DNA of 64,000 nucleotides from an uncultured Candidatus Saccharibacteria bacterium (lineage in GTDB: Bacteria > Patescibacteriota > Minisyncoccia > Phycocordibacterales > UBA12088), in the NCBI GenBank assembly GCA_964567265.1, contig CAZMLK010000001.1, forward strand, positions 15,832 through 79,831, written 5' to 3'. The notes under the pieces are model-generated. The model saw only the letters and a program-made list of their open reading frames with translations. It ran no database searches and had not been told where the DNA came from. The position numbers and the translations under genes were made by a program. Numbering within the stretch: the stretch's first letter is position 1; every line of letters begins with the position of its first letter. Of the stretch, positions 1 through 52,678 are shown one piece after another.

Positions 1-315
1 TGTTGCCGCGCGAATGGCTCCGTCAGAGAGCTCCATTTTTTCAGGCACAACAATGAGTTTGTCGTCGTTATCATTTGTGCGGTGGATAATTGCAATACAC
101 TGACCTGTGAAGGTTTCCACCGGATCCTGTATTCCTATTACATATGCATCGAGTTCCTCACCATCTGGGGATTTGGTGTCTGTAATGAAGCCATAATTCA
201 ATTCATAGACAAAGTCATGCTTAGGGTGTTTTGAATGGAGGGGACGATCAATTTTGACTGTCACTATTTTATTTAGAAAATCTGTGGCCACCGTGAATTG
301 ATTTTTTTCATCCAT
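1..315 (-). CDS. ppa: Inorganic pyrophosphatase, C-terminally truncated by window edge
   Basis: Minus-strand translation from ATG at 315..313: MDEKNQFTVATDFLNKIVTVKIDRPLHSKHPKHDFVYELNYGFITDTKSPDGEELDAYVIGIQDPVETFTGQCIAIIHRTNDNDDKLIVVPEK. This matches family I PPase motifs (E. coli NYGYI...DGDPVDVLV...KLVAVP). Not in the ORF track because it runs off the window. Confidence 0.7.
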   Translation of the reverse strand, partial: MDEKNQFTVATDFLNKIVTVKIDRPLHSKHPKHDFVYELNYGFITDTKSPDGEELDAYVIGIQDPVETFTGQCIAIIHRTNDNDDKLIVVPEKMELSDGAIRAAT

Positions 316-393
316 ACAAATTCTTTAATTTTTCAGAGTATAACATAAAAAAACCGGGGCTCTTGGTGAGCCCCGGTTGAATGAAGTGTAATG

Positions 394-1206
394 TCAGGAC
401 GGATCGACAATGACGGTGCACAGATAGTCCCGATGGACTAATATCGCATCTTGTCTAGTGAATGAAGGAGCAGTGCATAGTTCTGGCGGCGGATTCGCAC
501 GAATACAGTAGGGATCACTAAACCCAAGAGGTTCATGATCAGTTCTGCCTTCGAAGTTGGCCCATAGATACGCACGGGAAGGGCAACCGCCTCGGCAACT
601 CTCGAGGTGCTCACAGCCTCTGCACTGACTTGTTAATTCCGGGCGGGCACGTCTTCTCCTGAATGCTTCAAATTCCTTGCTAGCTATGATGCCCTCAAGG
701 TCTTCCGTAAGAAGGTCGCCTACCTTAAAGTCGTGGGCATAGACACACGGACTCACTGGAACCCGACCGTCAGGAGTTATCGAATGAATCCGGAATGATT
801 TGGTACCACAAGGGCAACCCCGTGAATTCTGACTAGTGAAGGTCGACGCAAGTGGTTCCCCCATCTCCACGACCTTACAGGACGTGAAGAGGCGATGGCA
901 GGTTCGGTAGAAGGTCTCCACGTCAGGTACCAGTTCCATGTGGTATGGCTCAGTGGGCTTCATAAAGTTGATGCGTACTAGAGCTTTTTGCGCGCGCGAG
1001 GGGCAGCAATGTTGTGAAAGAGGCATTTTTGTCCACTTTCGAAAGTAGGTGATACGGGCTTTTAAATTGGACTGAAGCCGTTTTTTATTCCTGACCGAGA
1101 GGTTCCAAAGTAGCTTTTCTAAGATAAGCCGCTTATTTGCGTTGCTCACTTCCCTAGAAGGAACTATACATAAAGGATTTCGGAGCGGGCCACACACATC
1201 AAGCAT
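394..1206 (-). CDS. SPASM-domain Cys-rich protein (C-terminal half of a radical-SAM/SPASM maturase; no radical-SAM core present)
   Basis: Contains CRGCEHLESCRGGCP, i.e. C-X2-C-X5-C-X-GGC, the SPASM auxiliary Fe-S motif, plus upstream Cys pairs (CHRLFTSC, CPCG...SPC). There is no CxxxCxxC radical-SAM motif, and the ORF plus upstream DNA are too short to hold a radical-SAM core. The true start is uncertain (possibly the internal MKPTEPYHM). Confidence 0.45.
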   Translation of the reverse strand: MLDVCGPLRNPLCIVPSREVSNANKRLILEKLLWNLSVRNKKRLQSNLKARITYFRKWTKMPLSQHCCPSRAQKALVRINFMKPTEPYHMELVPDVETFYRTCHRLFTSCKVVEMGEPLASTFTSQNSRGCPCGTKSFRIHSITPDGRVPVSPCVYAHDFKVGDLLTEDLEGIIASKEFEAFRRRRARPELTSQCRGCEHLESCRGGCPSRAYLWANFEGRTDHEPLGFSDPYCIRANPPPELCTAPSFTRQDAILVHRDYLCTVIVDPS

Positions 1207-1420
1207 ATCTCACACTATATGCTGGGGAATATTGGAACCACGATCTTTATTTCCGGGACCGCCTGCTTCGTCACCCGGACGAGGTTCAGGAGTATGCATT
1301 ATTGAAAATGGATATTGCTCGCGAGTATCCAGAGAGATCCACTGGGGTGTCCTGAAGGAAAGACTGAGTACATCAATGCAGAGGCCGCAAAGGCTAAAGA
1401 ATTGAGTTCGGAGCAGAGGG
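1158..1420 (+). pseudogene. GrpB-family protein remnant (C-terminal fragment, frameshifted)
   Basis: Plus-strand frame reads YWNHDLYFRDRLLRHPDEVQEYALLKMDIAREYPE, then after a frameshift DPLGCPEGKTEYINAEAAKAKEL. This resembles the GrpB C-terminus consensus (FRDYLRAHPE..A.EY..LK..LA...DR.AYTEAKT.FI). An in-frame stop lies just upstream and no N-terminal part is present. Confidence 0.35.
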
Positions 1421-1481
1421 TGCGTGCATCACGTGTATGGATTTTGCTCACAACTATAGAGTAGTATACTGAAGTCAAACT

Positions 1482-3881
1482 ATGCGAGGAATGAAATTTC
1501 ATATTGCGAAATTTGTGACTTCTCTAACAGTGCTCTTATTGTTTGTAATATCATTTCCACTTTCGGCCCATGCGACAGTGCCGGCGGCGGCACAACTTTT
1601 GGACTCGACTGAAAACCCCTACACCTCAACCGGTGTTCGTGTGACGGTCTCGAATGCAGGCAGTATGTACGGTCTCGCAAACGACCGCACTAGCGCGTAC
1701 ATCATCAATTCGAGCGGAAACATTTATACGGTTCCATTGGCGGCACTCGCTGCTTTGTCGGGAGGTTCGTCGACGAGCACGAACGGTACGGCGCATACGG
1801 TTGGCTGGAGTTCCGGCGGCGCACCAGCATGGCCCAATTCATCACAAGGGAGCATCGTCTACAGTCATGGGTGTGTTTTTATGACGAGTGCAGAAGGAAG
1901 TGGCACCACTCCTGGCACTATAGAACTATATTGCATCGACACGTCGGACTATTCGGTCACCCAGATTACGGTGCCCTCGGATAATCCACTTCCGAACGGG
2001 AATTATTTTGCCTATAGCAATCTTGTTGATTTTCCAGATGGGCGAATAGGTAAGGTCTCGAAGTATGTCGATATGGGCGGCGGCGTGTATCGCTCTACCT
2101 TGCGACTTTACACTGTCTCAGGAACGGGCAAGAATGCCACCCTCACGTGGTCCGAGGACATACAGATGAGTGACACAAACAACTGGGCTGTTGATGAGCA
2201 CGGTCTTGGGACCGACGGTACCTATCTGTACCGTATCCAATGGAGGGACGTAAATCCAAATACAAAAGTATGGCAATTGGCGAGCGGGGCAACGTCGACG
2301 GTCGTATACTCGGGAAATTTCACACGAGCGTTCGATAACATGCACTTCCTTTCTCATAACCATACCGGCAACTACTATCTGATAGGCTACTATTCCCAGA
2401 ACCAATTTTTTATTACAACCTCTGCGGATCCGGGTCCAGGACCCGGCAACCCCCTCACGCCTACATTCGCGACGCCGACGTACTCCTCGACCAGTTTTAC
2501 CGTGCAGGTAAGCAACTACGACAGCTCGTTTACCTGGGTGGTTTCCAGTACTGCGGGGAGTGTGAGCATCAACGGAACCGGCCTCATCTCCGTGACAGGT
2601 CTCTCTGGACAAGGTGCATCTGCAACGATAACTGCTTCGACGACAAAGAGCGGTATACCGGACGGATCCGCTAGTCTTACTGGTACGATACCGGACACGA
2701 CGGCACCCGTACTTTCTTCGATTGCGTCTTCGACAGCAGCAACGACCGCCAGTGTGACGTGGACGACGAACGAAGCCGCTTCAACAAAAATGGTATATTC
2801 CACGGACACTTCATATGCGTCATCTACATCCGAGGCAGATACCGGTACGCGCGTCATGAGCCACAGCAAATCACTCAGCGGCCTAGTTTCTTGCACAACG
2901 TATACGTTTAAAGTTGTTTCTTCAGATGCCTCAGGGAACTATGCGACCTCTTCCGCAAGCACATTCACCACAACAGGCTGCCCTGGCGGCGCGATACCTT
3001 CTTCTTCAACTTCTACCGCAATCACTGTGAGTTCTGCGGCCACGAGTACGGTGACGGATTCGGGTCGCACACTCACCGTATCGACGCCCGTAAACTTTAC
3101 GGCTACGTCCTCCTCGGTCATTATTCAAATCAAAGGACTCTCCTCAAACACCGTGCTTGGCTCAATAGGGAAGCCGGGCAGTCTTTCCAGCGCCGCTAGT
3201 CTGGTATTCGACGTCACCGCACTCATCGACAACGCCACCGTGCTCGACTCGTTTGATTCTCCGGTCACTATTTCCTATACCTATACCGACACTGACATAT
3301 CAGGGCTCAATGAAAGTTCGCTGACGATGTATCACTACCACAGCGGCTCATGGCTTGCGCTCAGTGACTGCTCGGTCAATACCAGCACAAACACAATAAC
3401 CTGTTCGACGTCGAGCTTCTCAACATTTGCGATTTTCGGTACCGCGCAGTCGTCATCATCTAATTCCTCCGTGGGAGGAGCCTCGCTGCCGTGGTGTTCG
3501 AGTCCGTCTGCACCGGGGTGGAATGTAAGCATGTCGGGAGGAGGGTGTCGTAAAGTTGTTCTGGAGACATCAACTGCTGTACCGGAAAATATGGCCGTCT
3601 GCCCGAGATACACATTTGTTCGCTCGTTGCGTCGAGGTATGGTCGGTGAAGATGTCCGAAACTTACAGAAATTGATGAACTGCCTCGGCTTTTCACTCGG
3701 CACAAGCGGTCCGGGCTCACCAGGTAATGAGACTACCATTTTTGTTGGTCGAACCGACGACGCTGTAAAGAAGTTTCAAAATGCATATTCCGCTGAGGTG
3801 CTGGCTCCGATAGGAATCAAAAAACCTACGGGAATTTTTGGTGAACGTTCCCAGAAGAAGGTGAAAGAACTCCTCAATTAG
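1482..3881 (+). CDS. Large secreted cell-surface protein with C-terminal peptidoglycan-binding (PG_binding_1-like) domain
   Basis: N-terminal signal peptide (MRGMKFHIAKFVTSLTVLLLFVISFPLSAHA). Ser/Thr-rich Ig/Fn3-like repeats follow. The C-terminus RSLRRGMVGEDVRNLQKLMNCLGFSLG...DDAVKKFQNAYS is typical of PG-binding domain 1. Confidence 0.7.
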   Translation: MRGMKFHIAKFVTSLTVLLLFVISFPLSAHATVPAAAQLLDSTENPYTSTGVRVTVSNAGSMYGLANDRTSAYIINSSGNIYTVPLAALAALSGGSSTSTNGTAHTVGWSSGGAPAWPNSSQGSIVYSHGCVFMTSAEGSGTTPGTIELYCIDTSDYSVTQITVPSDNPLPNGNYFAYSNLVDFPDGRIGKVSKYVDMGGGVYRSTLRLYTVSGTGKNATLTWSEDIQMSDTNNWAVDEHGLGTDGTYLYRIQWRDVNPNTKVWQLASGATSTVVYSGNFTRAFDNMHFLSHNHTGNYYLIGYYSQNQFFITTSADPGPGPGNPLTPTFATPTYSSTSFTVQVSNYDSSFTWVVSSTAGSVSINGTGLISVTGLSGQGASATITASTTKSGIPDGSASLTGTIPDTTAPVLSSIASSTAATTASVTWTTNEAASTKMVYSTDTSYASSTSEADTGTRVMSHSKSLSGLVSCTTYTFKVVSSDASGNYATSSASTFTTTGCPGGAIPSSSTSTAITVSSAATSTVTDSGRTLTVSTPVNFTATSSSVIIQIKGLSSNTVLGSIGKPGSLSSAASLVFDVTALIDNATVLDSFDSPVTISYTYTDTDISGLNESSLTMYHYHSGSWLALSDCSVNTSTNTITCSTSSFSTFAIFGTAQSSSSNSSVGGASLPWCSSPSAPGWNVSMSGGGCRKVVLETSTAVPENMAVCPRYTFVRSLRRGMVGEDVRNLQKLMNCLGFSLGTSGPGSPGNETTIFVGRTDDAVKKFQNAYSAEVLAPIGIKKPTGIFGERSQKKVKELLN

Positions 3882-3982
3882 TCAGCTCCAAAAAGCATAG
3901 TAGTATTTTTCCGGCTTACCCGAACATCACATAACTTTACTTTGCAACCAATTCGGCTGTCTGGTGGTTAGTAGGTGTATCC

Positions 3983-5521
3983 ATGAATACATTCAGCCAA
4001 CATACGAAGATGCTGCTTCTGGCGGCAGTCTCACTCGCCCTCGGGGTCCTGTGGACGTACCTCTTCTATAAGCAGAATATAGGCCTCAATTTCTCGATCT
4101 TCATGATCCTGGTCGCAGGAGGAGGGGTGCTGCTCTCAAGGATTTTTTCCCGCCAGCTCGGAGGAGGAGTCTATGCGCTTATCGCGGCAAGCCTCTTCTT
4201 TTCATCGATGGTATTCGTTCGCTCGAGCGAGCTCCTCTCTGTCTTCAATGTTCTCGGAAGCTTGTCCCTCTTTCTTCTTGTTGGAAGCGTCCTTGGCGGC
4301 AAACAATTGCGCTCGTTCCTGCCGATCGATTACGTGAAAGTATTCTTCCTCCCGCTCCGTTTTCTCGCCCCATTCTGGGTAACATTCTCAGATATCATTT
4401 CCCTGAACCGGATCGCGAAAGAGGGGACGCGAGCGCGGGAGATACTCCGCGGGAGCCTCATGGCGGCAATCGCGCTCGCGGCGTTCGGCCTCCTGTTCGC
4501 ATCGGCCGATACGGGATTCGCGAATCTATTTTCAAAAGTATTCTCTTTCTCGATCAATCAAGATTTCTTCAATACAACACTCCTTGCGGCAATCGTCACG
4601 GCATTCTTCATCGGGACATTCGGCTTCATCTTCAACACGCTCCACGCGGATGAGGGAGCGCGACCTGAAGGAGGGAAGCGGCGGCTCGGCGCGCTCGAGA
4701 CCACGATCCTTCTCGGTTCCATAAACGCGCTCTTCCTCGTATTCATCCTTCTCCAGATATCGTATCTCTTCGGAGGCGTTGCCCATCTCGTGGATCAGGG
4801 CCTCACCTATGCGGACTATGCGCGCGAAGGATTCTTCCAGCTGATCGCAGTCGCGATCCTCTCGTTCCTCATAATCGCCTTCGCCGAATGGCAGATCATC
4901 AAAACCGACAAGGGGCATTTCCATTCGTTCAAGCTCTTGAGCGGAGCGCTCGTGGCGCAGGTCATCCTCATCCTCGTGTCCGCATTCTCTAGGCTTTCAC
5001 TGTATGAGCATGCATACGGCTTCACCACCATCCGACTCTACAGCCATGCGTTCATGATCTGGATCGGCTTCGCGCTCTTCCTCCTATCTGTCCATATCTG
5101 GAAGAATGGGAGGCAGGAAGCCCTCGCGTTCCAGGTCTTCTGTGCCGTGGTCCTGTTCCTCTTCGGGATGAACGCGATGAATCCCGATGTATTCATCTCA
5201 AAGAAAAATATCGACCGCTATCACGAAACGGGGAAGATCGATGTCGGCTACCTGAGTACGCTCTCGGATGACGCGCTCCTGTACACCATTCCGCTCCTCG
5301 ATGATCCGAACGAAGAGGTGCGAAAGAGTTTCGCGAACGCATTGTACTCCCGCGAATGCGGCACGGCCGGATGCGGCGAGATCCGCGCACATTCGTGGAA
5401 GTCAGAGCGTCTCTCGCATACGAACACGGAAAGCCTGCTCGCCTCGCGGAGAGCCATGCTGGAAGAGAACAAGGATTGGTCCACGACGACGCCTTCGAGC
5501 ACGGTTCCTGACAACCGATAA
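3983..5521 (+). CDS. Polytopic integral membrane protein (DUF4173-like)
   Basis: About 12 predicted hydrophobic helices throughout. No catalytic motif recognised. Confidence 0.55.
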   Translation: MNTFSQHTKMLLLAAVSLALGVLWTYLFYKQNIGLNFSIFMILVAGGGVLLSRIFSRQLGGGVYALIAASLFFSSMVFVRSSELLSVFNVLGSLSLFLLVGSVLGGKQLRSFLPIDYVKVFFLPLRFLAPFWVTFSDIISLNRIAKEGTRAREILRGSLMAAIALAAFGLLFASADTGFANLFSKVFSFSINQDFFNTTLLAAIVTAFFIGTFGFIFNTLHADEGARPEGGKRRLGALETTILLGSINALFLVFILLQISYLFGGVAHLVDQGLTYADYAREGFFQLIAVAILSFLIIAFAEWQIIKTDKGHFHSFKLLSGALVAQVILILVSAFSRLSLYEHAYGFTTIRLYSHAFMIWIGFALFLLSVHIWKNGRQEALAFQVFCAVVLFLFGMNAMNPDVFISKKNIDRYHETGKIDVGYLSTLSDDALLYTIPLLDDPNEEVRKSFANALYSRECGTAGCGEIRAHSWKSERLSHTNTESLLASRRAMLEENKDWSTTTPSSTVPDNR

Positions 5522-6606: not shown

Positions 6607-8037
6607 TCAATTCAAGAGCGCCGCGGCGTCCTCGGCGAGACGGCAGCTCTCGCCTTGGCATGCCGCAAGGAGCTTCGTTCTGGCTTCAAAATCGGCGAGG
6701 ATTGCGGGCGATGCATATGCACTGAGATTGCGCATCTGGAACGGGTCGCCGGGGCCGTAGAGTTCCCGGTCACCGTTGTGATGGCTGATGGAAAGCCATC
6801 CGTCGATGGTGCGCACGGCATCATAGCGGCAGGCAGGCTCGCTGCTGTTTTCCTCGCAGAACCGGCGGACGATGAGGAATTGCTTCCGTCCTGGAAGTGT
6901 CGGGTCGCGGAAATACGGAAGCATGCTCCTGCCGTCAAACGCACCATCTTCGCTTTCGACACCTGCCATGTCGAGGATGGTCGGCACCAGATCCGTAAGA
7001 AGAACAAGGTGTTTTTGCGGGACCTGCGCCGGTATCGATGTCCCTTCGCACAGGAACAGGAAGGGCACCTTGCTGTCATCGTCGTATGCGGTCGTCTTGC
7101 CGTATCGATCGCCACGCGCGACCTGGTGGAAGCCGTGATCGGACGTGATGATGAGACAGTAGGGACGGCCTCGATCTGCCCATTGGCGGTGGAGCAGATC
7201 CTGTATCTGGCCGATTGCGAGATCAACCGACGGAAGCGTCTCCGCGCGGTCGCGCGCGTGCAGGGTTGCGGCTTCAAGATATGCTGCTTCGTCGGCGATT
7301 TTGTACGGTTCAATCTCGAGCCACTTTGGCGGATGATCGAGCAGTACTCCGGTTTGTGGCGGAAAAGGAATGGCGAGGTTCTCGAATCGCCGGGACCCCG
7401 GCGGCCGCATATGCTGGCCTGAGTGCGGAGCGACGAAACCGATATTCACGAATACCGGCTCGTCGCGGATGGCCCGCATGCGATCCAACACGTTCCGAGC
7501 AACGAAGTCCGTGTGATAGGACGATTCCTGCCACTCCGTCCCATTTTCCGAAACCATGAAGTCGTAATATTCAGGGCCCATGACAATTGAATCCGTCCAT
7601 CCGGGGAGCGGTCCCGTTGATGGCGCGTGCCCGATATCGCCATTCATGAGCTTGCCAACCTGGATTGTTTTCCACCCGGCGTGGAGAAGACGATTCGCGA
7701 TCGAATTTGTCTCGCCATCATGTGCGCGGAATGCTGCGTAGCCGCCACCCGGTCCGGTGTTATTCAGAACGCCGGTACGGAGAGGACCTCTTCCCGTCAG
7801 CAGCGCCGCGCGAGAGGTGGAGCAGATCGTCGCCTGTGTGAACGCTTCAAAATACATCCCCGCGTTCGCGATCGCATCCAGGTTCGGGAGATCTCCGCGC
7901 GAACGGAGATAGTCGAATGTCCTGGTGTCAAGATCATCGAACGTGATAAGGACAATGGTCGCCGCGTCACGGGGTAGCGCTGATGCGGATGGAGGGAACA
8001 GGCAGAGTGCTGCAAGAACCAGTGCGATGATACGCAT
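6607..8037 (-). CDS. Sulfatase family protein with atypical C-S-T-S-R active-site motif
   Basis: Signal peptide MRIIALVLAALCLFPPSASA. ITFDDLD metal-binding start, CSTSRAALLTGR at the formylglycine position, and the sulfatase ITSDHG motif. Confidence 0.75.
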   Translation of the reverse strand: MRIIALVLAALCLFPPSASALPRDAATIVLITFDDLDTRTFDYLRSRGDLPNLDAIANAGMYFEAFTQATICSTSRAALLTGRGPLRTGVLNNTGPGGGYAAFRAHDGETNSIANRLLHAGWKTIQVGKLMNGDIGHAPSTGPLPGWTDSIVMGPEYYDFMVSENGTEWQESSYHTDFVARNVLDRMRAIRDEPVFVNIGFVAPHSGQHMRPPGSRRFENLAIPFPPQTGVLLDHPPKWLEIEPYKIADEAAYLEAATLHARDRAETLPSVDLAIGQIQDLLHRQWADRGRPYCLIITSDHGFHQVARGDRYGKTTAYDDDSKVPFLFLCEGTSIPAQVPQKHLVLLTDLVPTILDMAGVESEDGAFDGRSMLPYFRDPTLPGRKQFLIVRRFCEENSSEPACRYDAVRTIDGWLSISHHNGDRELYGPGDPFQMRNLSAYASPAILADFEARTKLLAACQGESCRLAEDAAALLN

Positions 8038-11338: not shown

Positions 11339-12736
11339 TCAGTGCGAGGTGACGAGGGCGTTCATGCGACTCCTTAGCTTTGCAAGTTCACGTTGCTGTG
11401 TCGTGGTGAGTGTTCCGAGAAGTAGGTTGGGACCATCGCTGGTGTTCCGTCCTTTGATTCTGAAGAATTCTTCCGCGCCGGTGTATCTCTTGATGAGCTT
11501 GTATCCCGAGGGGTCTGTGATTTCTCGCGTGTACCCGGAGTTTGGATTTCCAGCCGGAAAGTATTCCGAGTACACGTTTTGGTGCACTTCTCCGGTAGTC
11601 GAGTTGTCCAGTACAGGAACTAAGCTCACCCCATCAAGCGTTACTCCTGGCGGAACCACGCTCGCTGGGCTGACGCCTGCGAGTCCCAGGAACGTGGGGT
11701 AGAGATCGACACCGCTGACGATCCCTCGATAGATGCGTCCAGGAGTGGCGACGCCTGCGCCCGCAATGAATGCAGGTATTTCGATACCGGGGCCATACGG
11801 TGAGCTCTTTCCGTACGCACCATACGGAGATGCCATAACCTGTTTCGACGTGCCATTGTCTCCGATGAAGATGACGGTCGTTGTCGAGAGATCGACCCCT
11901 TTGAGAAGCCGTCCGATTTCGGTATCCATGGCTTCAATCATGCGCTCGAAGATCGCGCGATTACCCGTACCCGACTTGGGTCGATTGAGCAGGCTTGTCG
12001 GCGGCTCCTGATATGGTGAATGTGGCGCATTGAAGGCGAGCCAGAGGAAGTACGGCCGCCCCTGTGTTTTCGCCGACTTGATGACGCCGAGCGCGGCATC
12101 AACCTGGGTTGTGGTGGCATAGCCGGGCGATTTCACAGTCGTGACAGCCGGGTTATTCTCCGATGCCTTCACGTAGTTGTAGACATCATAGTAGTTTCCA
12201 AGAGCGCCTCCTGACACAGTCGTGGTGTAGAGGGGAAAGCCCCAGCGTTCAGAGAGATCGTACGGCTTTTTCTCGTACCCGATGTGCGATTTGCCGACGA
12301 GCGCAACGACATACGGAACTGGCAGATGAGCATTTGCCGCCGCGAACGCTTTCGCGATCGTAAAGGCGTCTGCGCTCAGCGGCGGCGTCGGCCGCGTGCT
12401 GTCTATCCATGCGCCGATATGCTGGTTGTCACGAAACGCGTACCTGCCGGTCATGATGCTCGCACGCGTAGGCGAACATTCCTGGTATCCCCACATTCCT
12501 GTGAAGATGACACCTTGGTTTGCTAATGCCGATAGGATCGGCGTTGGCGCGGCAGCAGGGACTGTATTCGTCCGTCCGTCCGTCGTGGGTACCCATGGGG
12601 CCATATCGACGCCCATATCATCGGCGATGATGAAGAGGATGTTCCGCGGGGCTGCCCCTGCGGCTTGTATGCCTGTCAAAGACCAGAGCGCGGCGACAAA
12701 CATCGCCGCCGCTGCTTTCAGTAAATGCCGTAGCAT
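11339..12736 (-). CDS. Sulfatase (Cys-type, canonical C-S-P-T-R formylglycine motif)
   Basis: Signal peptide. IADDMG, CSPTRASIMTGRY and NAPHSPY motifs are typical of arylsulfatase family members. Confidence 0.85.
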   Translation of the reverse strand: MLRHLLKAAAAMFVAALWSLTGIQAAGAAPRNILFIIADDMGVDMAPWVPTTDGRTNTVPAAAPTPILSALANQGVIFTGMWGYQECSPTRASIMTGRYAFRDNQHIGAWIDSTRPTPPLSADAFTIAKAFAAANAHLPVPYVVALVGKSHIGYEKKPYDLSERWGFPLYTTTVSGGALGNYYDVYNYVKASENNPAVTTVKSPGYATTTQVDAALGVIKSAKTQGRPYFLWLAFNAPHSPYQEPPTSLLNRPKSGTGNRAIFERMIEAMDTEIGRLLKGVDLSTTTVIFIGDNGTSKQVMASPYGAYGKSSPYGPGIEIPAFIAGAGVATPGRIYRGIVSGVDLYPTFLGLAGVSPASVVPPGVTLDGVSLVPVLDNSTTGEVHQNVYSEYFPAGNPNSGYTREITDPSGYKLIKRYTGAEEFFRIKGRNTSDGPNLLLGTLTTTQQRELAKLRSRMNALVTSH

Positions 12737-51602: not shown

Positions 51603-51889
51603 GTCAGTTACTCAATACTGTGGACACTGTGATGATTGTAGCATGAATAAATACTTTGTCAATACCCACAATCTCCAGAGGAGATTGTCTTCCCGCCATA
51701 GATTCGCTTTGCTCGTACGCGCCTTGTGACCCCGACTCGAACCGAGGTTCTTCCTTAGAGGACGGTACACCTTGCAGACATATTTAGTTAAGGGATCAGT
51801 CACGAGTCACTAAGGATTGTTCGTCGCAGGCTCCTCAAACCCTAAGTGCTCGCGACCCCGTCTCAAAACTAAAAATGTGTGGACAGCAT

Positions 51890-52175: not shown

Positions 52176-52288
52176 GATTACACCTGTAACCTGTAGTTGA
52201 TACGAAACTAAGTGGACCTTAGCATTTTTTATATGTATTGTCAATAGCACGAAACCGCCCGAACGGCGGTTTCGTCATTGTAAATGTG

Positions 52289-52678
52289 TGGAGATGGGGG
52301 GATCGAACCCCCGTCCGAACTGGGGCGGGATCGCGATCTACGAAGCGTAGTCACCTTTGTTCCTTTAGGCCGTGCTGGTCGAAGGTGACCAAATGCAGCA
52401 CGTGCCGAGCTTCCTTAATTTAGGTTCCGTGCCAAAGCGCTCATGGAACCGATTTCAGTTTTTATGACACCGTCATCACCCTACTGAACGACGGATGATG
52501 GGATGGCTTATGCAGTTGCGTAAGCGAACGCGAAGTCATTCATCTGGAATGGAGACAAAACTGACTTTGCGCGTGCGAGAGTGTTCTTTGCACTTGTTGT
52601 TTCCAGATTTTTAGGAAGGTCTGGACTTCCGCTTCGCCCGACAATCCGTAAGACCAATCCGTCGAAACTGACATCCCC
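52289..52678 (-). ncRNA. ssrA: tmRNA (ssrA), ~390 nt, directly downstream of smpB
   Basis: 5' end GGGGATGTCAGTTTCGACGGATTGG (compare E. coli GGGGCUGAUUCUGGAUUCGACGGGAUUUG). 3' end TTCGGACGGGGGTTCGATCCCCCCATCTCCA, a tRNA-like T-arm plus an acceptor strand complementary to the 5' GGGGATG. An internal ORF ends ...NDFAFAYATA-TAA, a plausible degradation tag. Confidence 0.8.

Follow-up and report, generated by a model that had tools for sequence, protein, structure and literature searches.

Is a gene that encodes a SPASM domain and no radical S-adenosylmethionine (SAM) core a functional unit, or what is left of a larger one? The question is raised by open reading frame (ORF) 394..1206, which lies on the minus strand of a 64,000-nucleotide stretch of the uncultured Candidatus Saccharibacteria contig CAZMLK010000001.1 (positions 15,832 to 79,831; hereafter, the window) and faces the fragment of a GrpB-family gene. 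A preliminary description, made from the sequence alone, had left two readings of this ORF: (i) a decayed maturase of two Cys-type sulfatases encoded in the same window; and (ii) a novel standalone SPASM Fe-S protein. Having analyzed the 64-kb window together with relatives' loci of 4–17 kb, we consider it very probable that the ORF no longer functions and is what a 5' truncation left of a two-gene radical-SAM operon. Mechanistically it would be an ordinary 5'-truncated pseudogene, in a genome that is small and streamlined.

The product of ORF 394..1206 is a SPASM protein by both curated cutoffs, PF13186 matching residues 137–199 at 37.2 bits (cutoff 21.5, E 3.7e-9) and TIGR04085 matching residues 133–215 at 43.6 bits (cutoff 27), and the SPASM motif and upstream cysteine pairs that had been described are thereby borne out. 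The four cysteines of the CX2CX5CX3C cluster-binding motif (C195, C198, C204 and C208) occupy invariant columns in a 69-sequence alignment of the family. Further SPASM cysteines, namely the upstream C131-P-C133 and C154 and the downstream C234, all fall in invariant family columns as well. The seven-cysteine pattern (C...G...C, CX2CX5CX3C, final C) is complete, being represented by C133 (together with C131), G147, C154, C195, C198, C204, C208 and C234. The G-to-C spacing in the G147–C154 part is 6 residues; in the canonical SPASM motif it is 4 residues.

None of the radical-SAM core accompanies this domain. The ORF contains no CxxxCxxC motif and has no PF04055 match at E ≤ 1, and a regular-expression search of all stop-to-stop ORFs of at least 80 residues gave two matches to the motif, neither of them at this locus. 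A family-specific hidden Markov model (HMM) of 385 nodes, built from 110 intact members of the family identified below and run with all HMMER filters off on the six frames of 380..1500, aligned over nodes 183–384 at 290.8 bits, while nodes 1–182 found nothing in any of these frames. Lacking the cluster motif, a PF04055 match and HMM nodes 1–182, the ORF product is not a member of the radical-SAM superfamily, and the lack of a core reported earlier is confirmed by motif search, Pfam and unfiltered HMM alike. Upstream of the ORF, the next gene (start 1482) is only 275 bp away, in agreement with the earlier estimate of less than 300 bp.

An intact core might still have been recovered by correcting a sequencing frameshift, an outcome that the preliminary description had named as fatal to its reading. 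When five intact homologues were compared by tblastn with positions 1..2000, a single significant segment was obtained, 999..397, corresponding to residues 177–376 at 61–66% identity. Frameshift rescue was pursued in all six frames by tblastn with the five homologues (word size 2, E ≤ 10) and by the unfiltered family HMM, and neither gave anything upstream of position 1011. This silence, along with that of nodes 1–182, implies that the 5' 47% of the gene is absent rather than frameshifted; judged from these alignments, the locus is a decayed radical-SAM/SPASM gene and not the product of a sequencing frameshift.

The parent family is readily recognized. In a database search 219 homologues were found, almost all of which are 340–460 residues long, have both PF04055 and PF13186, and come from metagenome assemblies of Patescibacteria and DPANN type. 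The best of these are 63–66% identical to the ORF product, over just 74% of the query: codons 66–270 share 60–66% identity with the C-terminal half of the proteins, about 378 residues long, of an unnamed radical-SAM/SPASM family, with window residues ~70–270 aligning to residues ~177–378 of the intact proteins. The N-termini of the intact homologues carry GNDCPYRCxHCYS, the radical-SAM cluster motif. The segment that survives in the window comprises the last radical-SAM barrel elements, the SPASM domain in full and, at the C-terminus, the conserved tail LVHRDYLCTxIVDP, and the predicted local distance difference test (pLDDT) score of the ORF product exceeds 90 from about residue 70 to residue 270. 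Thus, the window copy resembles the members of this family (for example P0002, P0003, P0011 and P0032) in its SPASM cysteines, its tail and its place upstream of genes for inorganic pyrophosphatase and thymidylate kinase (Tmk), but lacks residues 1–~176, including the CPYRCxHC motif, as well as the B12-binding radical-SAM partner described next.

Comparison with orthologous loci, which had been proposed as a check, located intact PF04055- and PF13186-containing orthologues of about 378 residues at the same syntenic position. The order in relatives is a divergent Hsp70/YegD-like gene, a gene for a B12-binding radical-SAM protein (516–528 residues), the radical-SAM/SPASM gene, the pyrophosphatase gene (119–127 residues) and a convergent thymidylate kinase gene (for example in contigs L002, 4995–10271, and L004, 4980–10262, and also in L006, L008 and L009). 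The B12-binding radical-SAM gene lies directly upstream of the radical-SAM/SPASM gene in every relative with enough flanking sequence, and the divergent Hsp70/YegD-like gene lies further upstream in most of these loci. The window, extended by the independent Logan assembly L001 (100% identical to it over 11.2 kb, although both may stem from the same reads), keeps the remnant, pyrophosphatase and Tmk in the order seen in relatives. The window's pyrophosphatase is 62% identical to the one that follows the intact radical-SAM/SPASM gene in L002, and its best named matches are from Minisyncoccia, Nomurabacteria and Kaiserbacteria. Conversely, neither the B12-binding radical-SAM gene nor the Hsp70-like gene, nor a relic of either, was found anywhere in the 64-kb window. 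By sequence and gene order, the locus corresponds to that of an orthologous two-gene radical-SAM operon from which the leading gene and the 5' half of the following one have been lost. The remnant belongs, as a remnant, to this Patescibacterial operon type: orthology and downstream synteny are present, and the upstream B12-binding radical-SAM gene and the 5' half are missing. The species from which the window comes was not present among the genome representatives, where the search gave only three distant relatives.

In the relatives, neither protein of the B12-binding radical-SAM and radical-SAM/SPASM pair reaches the cutoff of any NCBIfam equivalog model (BchE, 143 bits versus 481; MftC, 77–95 bits versus 265), and the pair looks like an uncharacterized two-enzyme pathway. 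Its conservation beside pyrophosphatase and Tmk across Patescibacteria-type genomes, while fitting no curated family, is in our view a more interesting by-product of this analysis than the remnant itself, and lies outside the window.

The GrpB fragment on the opposite strand had been described as a frameshifted C-terminal piece adjoining the ORF. Both the fragment and its frameshift stand, and an in-frame stop must be added to them; the two genes are not merely adjacent, as the fragment runs antisense to the SPASM ORF over its initial ~22 codons (1140..1206). PF04229 matches it at 32.7–33 bits (cutoff 25.5) over profile positions 77–154 of 159, and a profile of full-length GrpB proteins matches at 62.8 bits, aligning residues ~92–157 of ~182 with 1140..1334 across the stop (1155..1157). 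The frame is lost near 1335–1350, after which the conserved tail of the C-terminus (GKTEYI...KAKEL) is encoded in a different frame, as far as 1461. The fragment carries the conserved core of the family (H-x-H...W...FRD.L...Y..LK), but comprises only the C-terminal ~90 residues; with a passing score, partial coverage, a stop and a frameshift, it is not an intact full-domain GrpB gene. Its identity to annotated plasmid GrpB genes is 32–36% (tblastn), and to any representative protein 47% at best. No frame gave a GrpB signal upstream of 1140, apart from a match on the opposite strand at 1073..1129 that was weak (E about 3) and was ignored. Decay has gone further in the GrpB piece than in the radical-SAM remnant (stop, frameshift, at most 47% identity), and this piece was probably already a pseudogene before the truncation.

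The two fragments face each other 5'-end to 5'-end, the 5' parts of both being gone, and are separated by ~130 bp of unassignable DNA of 41% GC; the junction DNA is not repeated anywhere else in the window. The 65 codons by which the ORF extends beyond the surviving part of the gene gave no family-HMM signal, no Pfam signal and no homologues; their GC content is 42.6%, their GC content at third codon positions (GC3) is 0.45 as compared with 0.61–0.71 in neighboring genes, and their pLDDT is 28–52. Most likely, this extension is just a frame that chance has left open, from the deletion junction on into DNA derived from GrpB. A resemblance of the extension to the family at 'WNLS' and 'C..C', suggested by MAFFT placement, is supported neither by tblastn nor by the HMM, and we take it as chance.

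The simplest history would be one or more deletions across the divergent promoter region. In one event or several, deletion or replacement would have removed the B12-binding radical-SAM gene together with the promoter region and, from the radical-SAM/SPASM gene, the first ~180 codons, among them those for the CX3CX2C cluster and all SAM-binding elements, and would have left the last ~205 codons abutting a head-to-head GrpB pseudogene that had decayed already. The frame of the remnant would then happen to stay open for 65 more codons, through the junction and antisense GrpB DNA, to an ATG, which is why gene callers would report a 270-residue 'SPASM protein'. Without a radical-SAM cluster, and with most of the barrel gone, such a product could not cleave SAM. 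If the gene was truncated recently, as measured against the divergence of the family, the surviving half would so far have been spared stops and losses of conserved residues.

Contig L011, a short Logan contig found through its 98%-identical pyrophosphatase, provides a second view of this locus. It is 99.0% identical to the window over 1408 bp, comprising the 3' end of the remnant, the terminator, pyrophosphatase and Tmk. The similarity begins abruptly at window position 633 (codon T192), upstream of the CX2CX5CX3C motif, and the 616 bp preceding the shared block are unrelated to the window. Only codons 192–270 (79 codons) of the remnant are therefore kept in L011; the N-terminal SPASM cysteines are gone, and no gene is called there. 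The terminator hairpin is kept, with a T run shorter by one T. No JGI metagenome contig matched the 24-mers of the exact junction or of the shared block.

A 1.4-kb core that is 99% identical in L011, with unrelated DNA on both sides of it, may also indicate that the truncation did not take place where the gene now stands, the partial gene having arrived instead at the frayed margin of a pyrophosphatase-Tmk block acquired by recombination or transfer, or the junction being an assembly chimera. Base composition points the same way: a ~6-kb low-GC trough (window ~1–4200, L001 7000–13000), with 46–50% GC versus about 56% elsewhere in the genome, spans the gene for a 799-residue wall-binding protein, both gene remnants, pyrophosphatase and Tmk, with a GC3 of 0.39–0.54, or 0.39–0.51 in the pyrophosphatase-Tmk block, versus 0.61–0.71 in neighboring genes. 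This trough could reflect either foreign origin or relaxed constraint. However, the order radical-SAM/SPASM, pyrophosphatase, Tmk is the normal one in relatives, the low-GC region runs past the junction, and the two assemblies agree base for base, though perhaps because they share reads. We therefore regard a transferred or chimeric edge as unlikely, and the fragment would be non-functional on that account as well.

Several observations weigh against a dead remnant. The surviving 205 codons contain neither stop nor frameshift, whereas the GrpB neighbor has both within ~320 bp. All SPASM cysteines are kept; among the 61 columns that show at least 95% conservation across 111 sequences, the remnant agrees in 60, and it ranks 44th of 111 for deviations at columns at least 80% conserved, being no more deviant than intact members. 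A strong terminator remains after its stop codon, and the chance that random sequence would stay open for the 65 extra codons was estimated at only ~4%. Such a clean remnant fits a very recent truncation and purifying selection alike, and the data cannot separate the two. Furthermore, the block shared with L011 may stem from recombination and not from close kinship, in which case the argument for dispensability would lose force, and the evidence is drawn from 64 kb of the genome.

These same features would be expected if the C-terminal half survived under selection as a free-standing two-cluster SPASM Fe-S protein with a newly recruited N-terminus, perhaps as a ferredoxin-like protein with two [4Fe-4S] clusters or as a partner subunit, by analogy with natural SPASM-only proteins. 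The 270-codon ORF is intact, and its C-terminal 200 residues are confidently predicted to fold; this high pLDDT, however, derives from an alignment of intact proteins and is no proof that the half-barrel is stable alone. SPASM-only proteins do exist as a curated family, the GeoRSP SPASM protein (TIGR04304), with which the ORF product shares its length (~270–290 residues), its C-terminal SPASM domain and the lack of a radical-SAM cluster motif. Yet it scores only 32.7 bits against the TIGR04304 cutoff of 300, derives by truncation from a full-length radical-SAM/SPASM gene and has no adjacent radical-SAM partner; with this score and no cognate radical-SAM protein in the 64 kb, it does not belong to the GeoRSP SPASM family. 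Since a curated family of natural SPASM-only proteins already exists, a standalone reading would add no new category, and the literature searched contained nothing relevant on standalone SPASM proteins or on Patescibacterial radical-SAM/SPASM proteins.

Survival as a standalone protein is also opposed by the loss of the operon partner and of the promoter region, by the absence of a consensus promoter on the minus strand of the remnant, and by an N-terminal extension that is non-homologous, low in GC and modeled with low confidence. A check for a Shine-Dalgarno sequence was uninformative, as the intact pyrophosphatase gene also lacks an obvious one. In addition, the window protein forms a singleton cluster, and the 99%-identical contig L011 lacks two-thirds of the fragment. 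Whether L011 represents a sister strain or a recombinant, its stub of 79 codons argues that the fragment is not preserved as a unit, and in our reading the gene was truncated recently and is still being eroded. The second reading of the preliminary description, a novel standalone SPASM protein, is accordingly quite improbable, its partners being gone and its N-terminus looking fortuitous; if it were real, it would provide a natural experiment on whether the SPASM module is stable, and perhaps useful, by itself.

Other apparently SPASM-only homologues did not prove to stand alone in their own right: P0096 represents the downstream half of a gene that is split, and P0125 and P0009 begin at contig edges. 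In L009 (2993–4307), a low-coverage contig, the radical-SAM/SPASM gene appears in the gene calls as a pair of ORFs (142 and 281 residues), probably owing to a sequencing frameshift; this case shows a route by which 'SPASM-only' proteins enter databases as artifacts.

The remaining question is whether the gene, when intact, served the two sulfatases. That the window encodes two Cys-type sulfatases is correct, as PF00884 and Cys-type motifs were found in both; in the sulfatase at 6607..8037 the motif is CSTSR, with threonine at the canonical proline/alanine position. Both appear to be secreted, in a genome with patescibacterial-looking housekeeping genes. Anaerobic sulfatase-maturating enzymes (anSMEs; AtsB, anSMEcpe) have the same SPASM architecture, with two sets of auxiliary-cluster cysteines, and the anSME model TIGR03942, which matches locally over the SPASM region, is the second-best NCBIfam match of the remnant. 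The sulfatases, with their C-x-x-x-R motifs, lie only 5.4 and 10 kb away, and there is no other radical-SAM gene in the 64 kb. Furthermore, the top Foldseek matches of the ORF model, though weak, are anSMEcpe chains (4K36–4K39; E 0.018–0.07, TM-score 0.27–0.41, the best match having E 0.018 and TM-score 0.36), followed by the maturase ChlB of peptides made by the ribosome and modified post-translationally (RiPPs). This is to be expected of any SPASM fold, since anSMEcpe is the prototype SPASM structure; identity in the structural alignments is 12–15%, and the radical-SAM half is missing in the window.

The curated models argue against such a function. The remnant scores 32.8 bits and the intact orthologue P0032 41.6 bits with TIGR03942, as compared with a cutoff of 349.45, and the remnant scores 21.6 bits against the NF010308 cutoff of 484. 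For the intact P0002 and P0011, TIGR03942 is not among the top 25 families listed. Intact orthologues score higher with the MftC, GeoRSP, NirJ2 and PqqE models, all far below cutoffs, and by the NCBIfam models the family would not be classified as an anSME. The conserved partner of the family is a B12-binding radical-SAM protein, and no sulfatase was found in the fetched flanks of the relatives' loci (4–8 kb per side where the contig allows). Both sulfatases lie behind unrelated genes, and their ORFs are intact, which would not be expected had their only maturase died. The 64-kb window contains no FGE-like gene (oxygen-dependent formylglycine-generating enzyme), anSME candidate or radical-SAM gene. 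Cys-type sulfatases can also be matured by FGE and, in Escherichia coli, by an unidentified system; given these alternative routes, the absence of an anSME from 64 kb is not informative. Thus, of the decayed maturase originally proposed, the decayed radical-SAM/SPASM gene stands, with no core in any frame and syntenic intact orthologues, whereas its link to the sulfatases is not supported. The remnant is not shown to be a maturase and we treat it as unrelated to the maturation of the two sulfatases; that it is a decayed anSME that once served both is extremely unlikely.

The named systems closest to the intact orthologues are the MftC/PqqE-type maturases, which provide their best-scoring models (TIGR03962, TIGR02109) and their best solved sequence relative (PDB 6C8V). 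However, with the scores given above for the MftC model and PDB E-values of only 2e-4, the likeness is at superfamily level only. The only sequence relatives in the PDB were PqqE and a tetraether synthase (E about 1e-4).

The publicly annotated 'SPASM domain protein' should thus be corrected to a gene fragment, to be counted neither as a standalone Fe-S protein nor as a sulfatase maturase. A 5'-truncated remnant at this locus would also be a modest, dated case of a reduced genome losing a gene, in which sequences that are nearly identical are truncated at two different points. The features of the window discussed here are collected in Table 1.

Table 1. Coordinates of the SPASM ORF, its parts and other features in the 64-kb window
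Feature	Position	Strand	Details
SPASM ORF	394..1206	minus	270 aa
Surviving 3' part (codons 66–270) of radical-SAM/SPASM gene	397..1011	minus	Family HMM, tblastn, pLDDT, conserved columns
65-codon 5' extension of ORF	1012..1206	minus	No family homology
CX2CX5CX3C cluster-binding motif	583..624	minus	C195-RG-C198-EHLES-C204-RGG-C208; read from sequence; inside PF13186 and TIGR04085 matches
Intrinsic-terminator-like hairpin	352..378	minus	11-bp stem with 8 G-C pairs, then T run; directly after remnant stop, before pyrophosphatase
Inorganic pyrophosphatase, cut by window edge	1..312	minus	PF00719; synteny anchor
GrpB-family pseudogene fragment	1140..1464	plus	Residues ~92–182 of ~182 aa, N-terminal half absent; PF04229 and GrpB profile
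Ser/Thr-rich protein	1482–3881	plus	799 aa; N-terminal hydrophobic leader, C-terminal PG_binding_1
Sulfatase, Cys-type	6607..8037	minus	PF00884; CSTSRAALLTGR; N-terminal hydrophobic leader
Sulfatase, Cys-type	11339..12736	minus	PF00884; CSPTRASIMTGR; N-terminal hydrophobic leader
tmRNA gene	52286–52678	minus	Rfam RF00023, 114 bits; ARAGORN tag peptide AKNTLARAKSVLSPFQMNDFAFAYATA

Some further observations concern the surroundings of the locus. The C-terminal ~90 residues of the 799-residue protein are 38% identical to the end of a 1028-residue protein encoded beside Tmk in L002. The transfer-messenger RNA (tmRNA) is the only structured RNA that was found in the window, which gave no tRNA genes. 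Upstream of the tmRNA region, a 69-bp stretch (51799–51867) is 88% identical to L011 2042–2110, which is intergenic beside Tmk, and has no Rfam match at E ≤ 1. In L011, DNA unrelated to the window lies on both sides of the pyrophosphatase-Tmk core (1–616 and 2024–4975). One side contains a contig-edge ORF that looks like a DNA-binding protein, with no NCBIfam match at E ≤ 0.001, and the other encodes a 372-residue protein with a Pfam match to SduA_C (Shedu-type nuclease), which suggests that the pyrophosphatase-Tmk core sits between variable islands.

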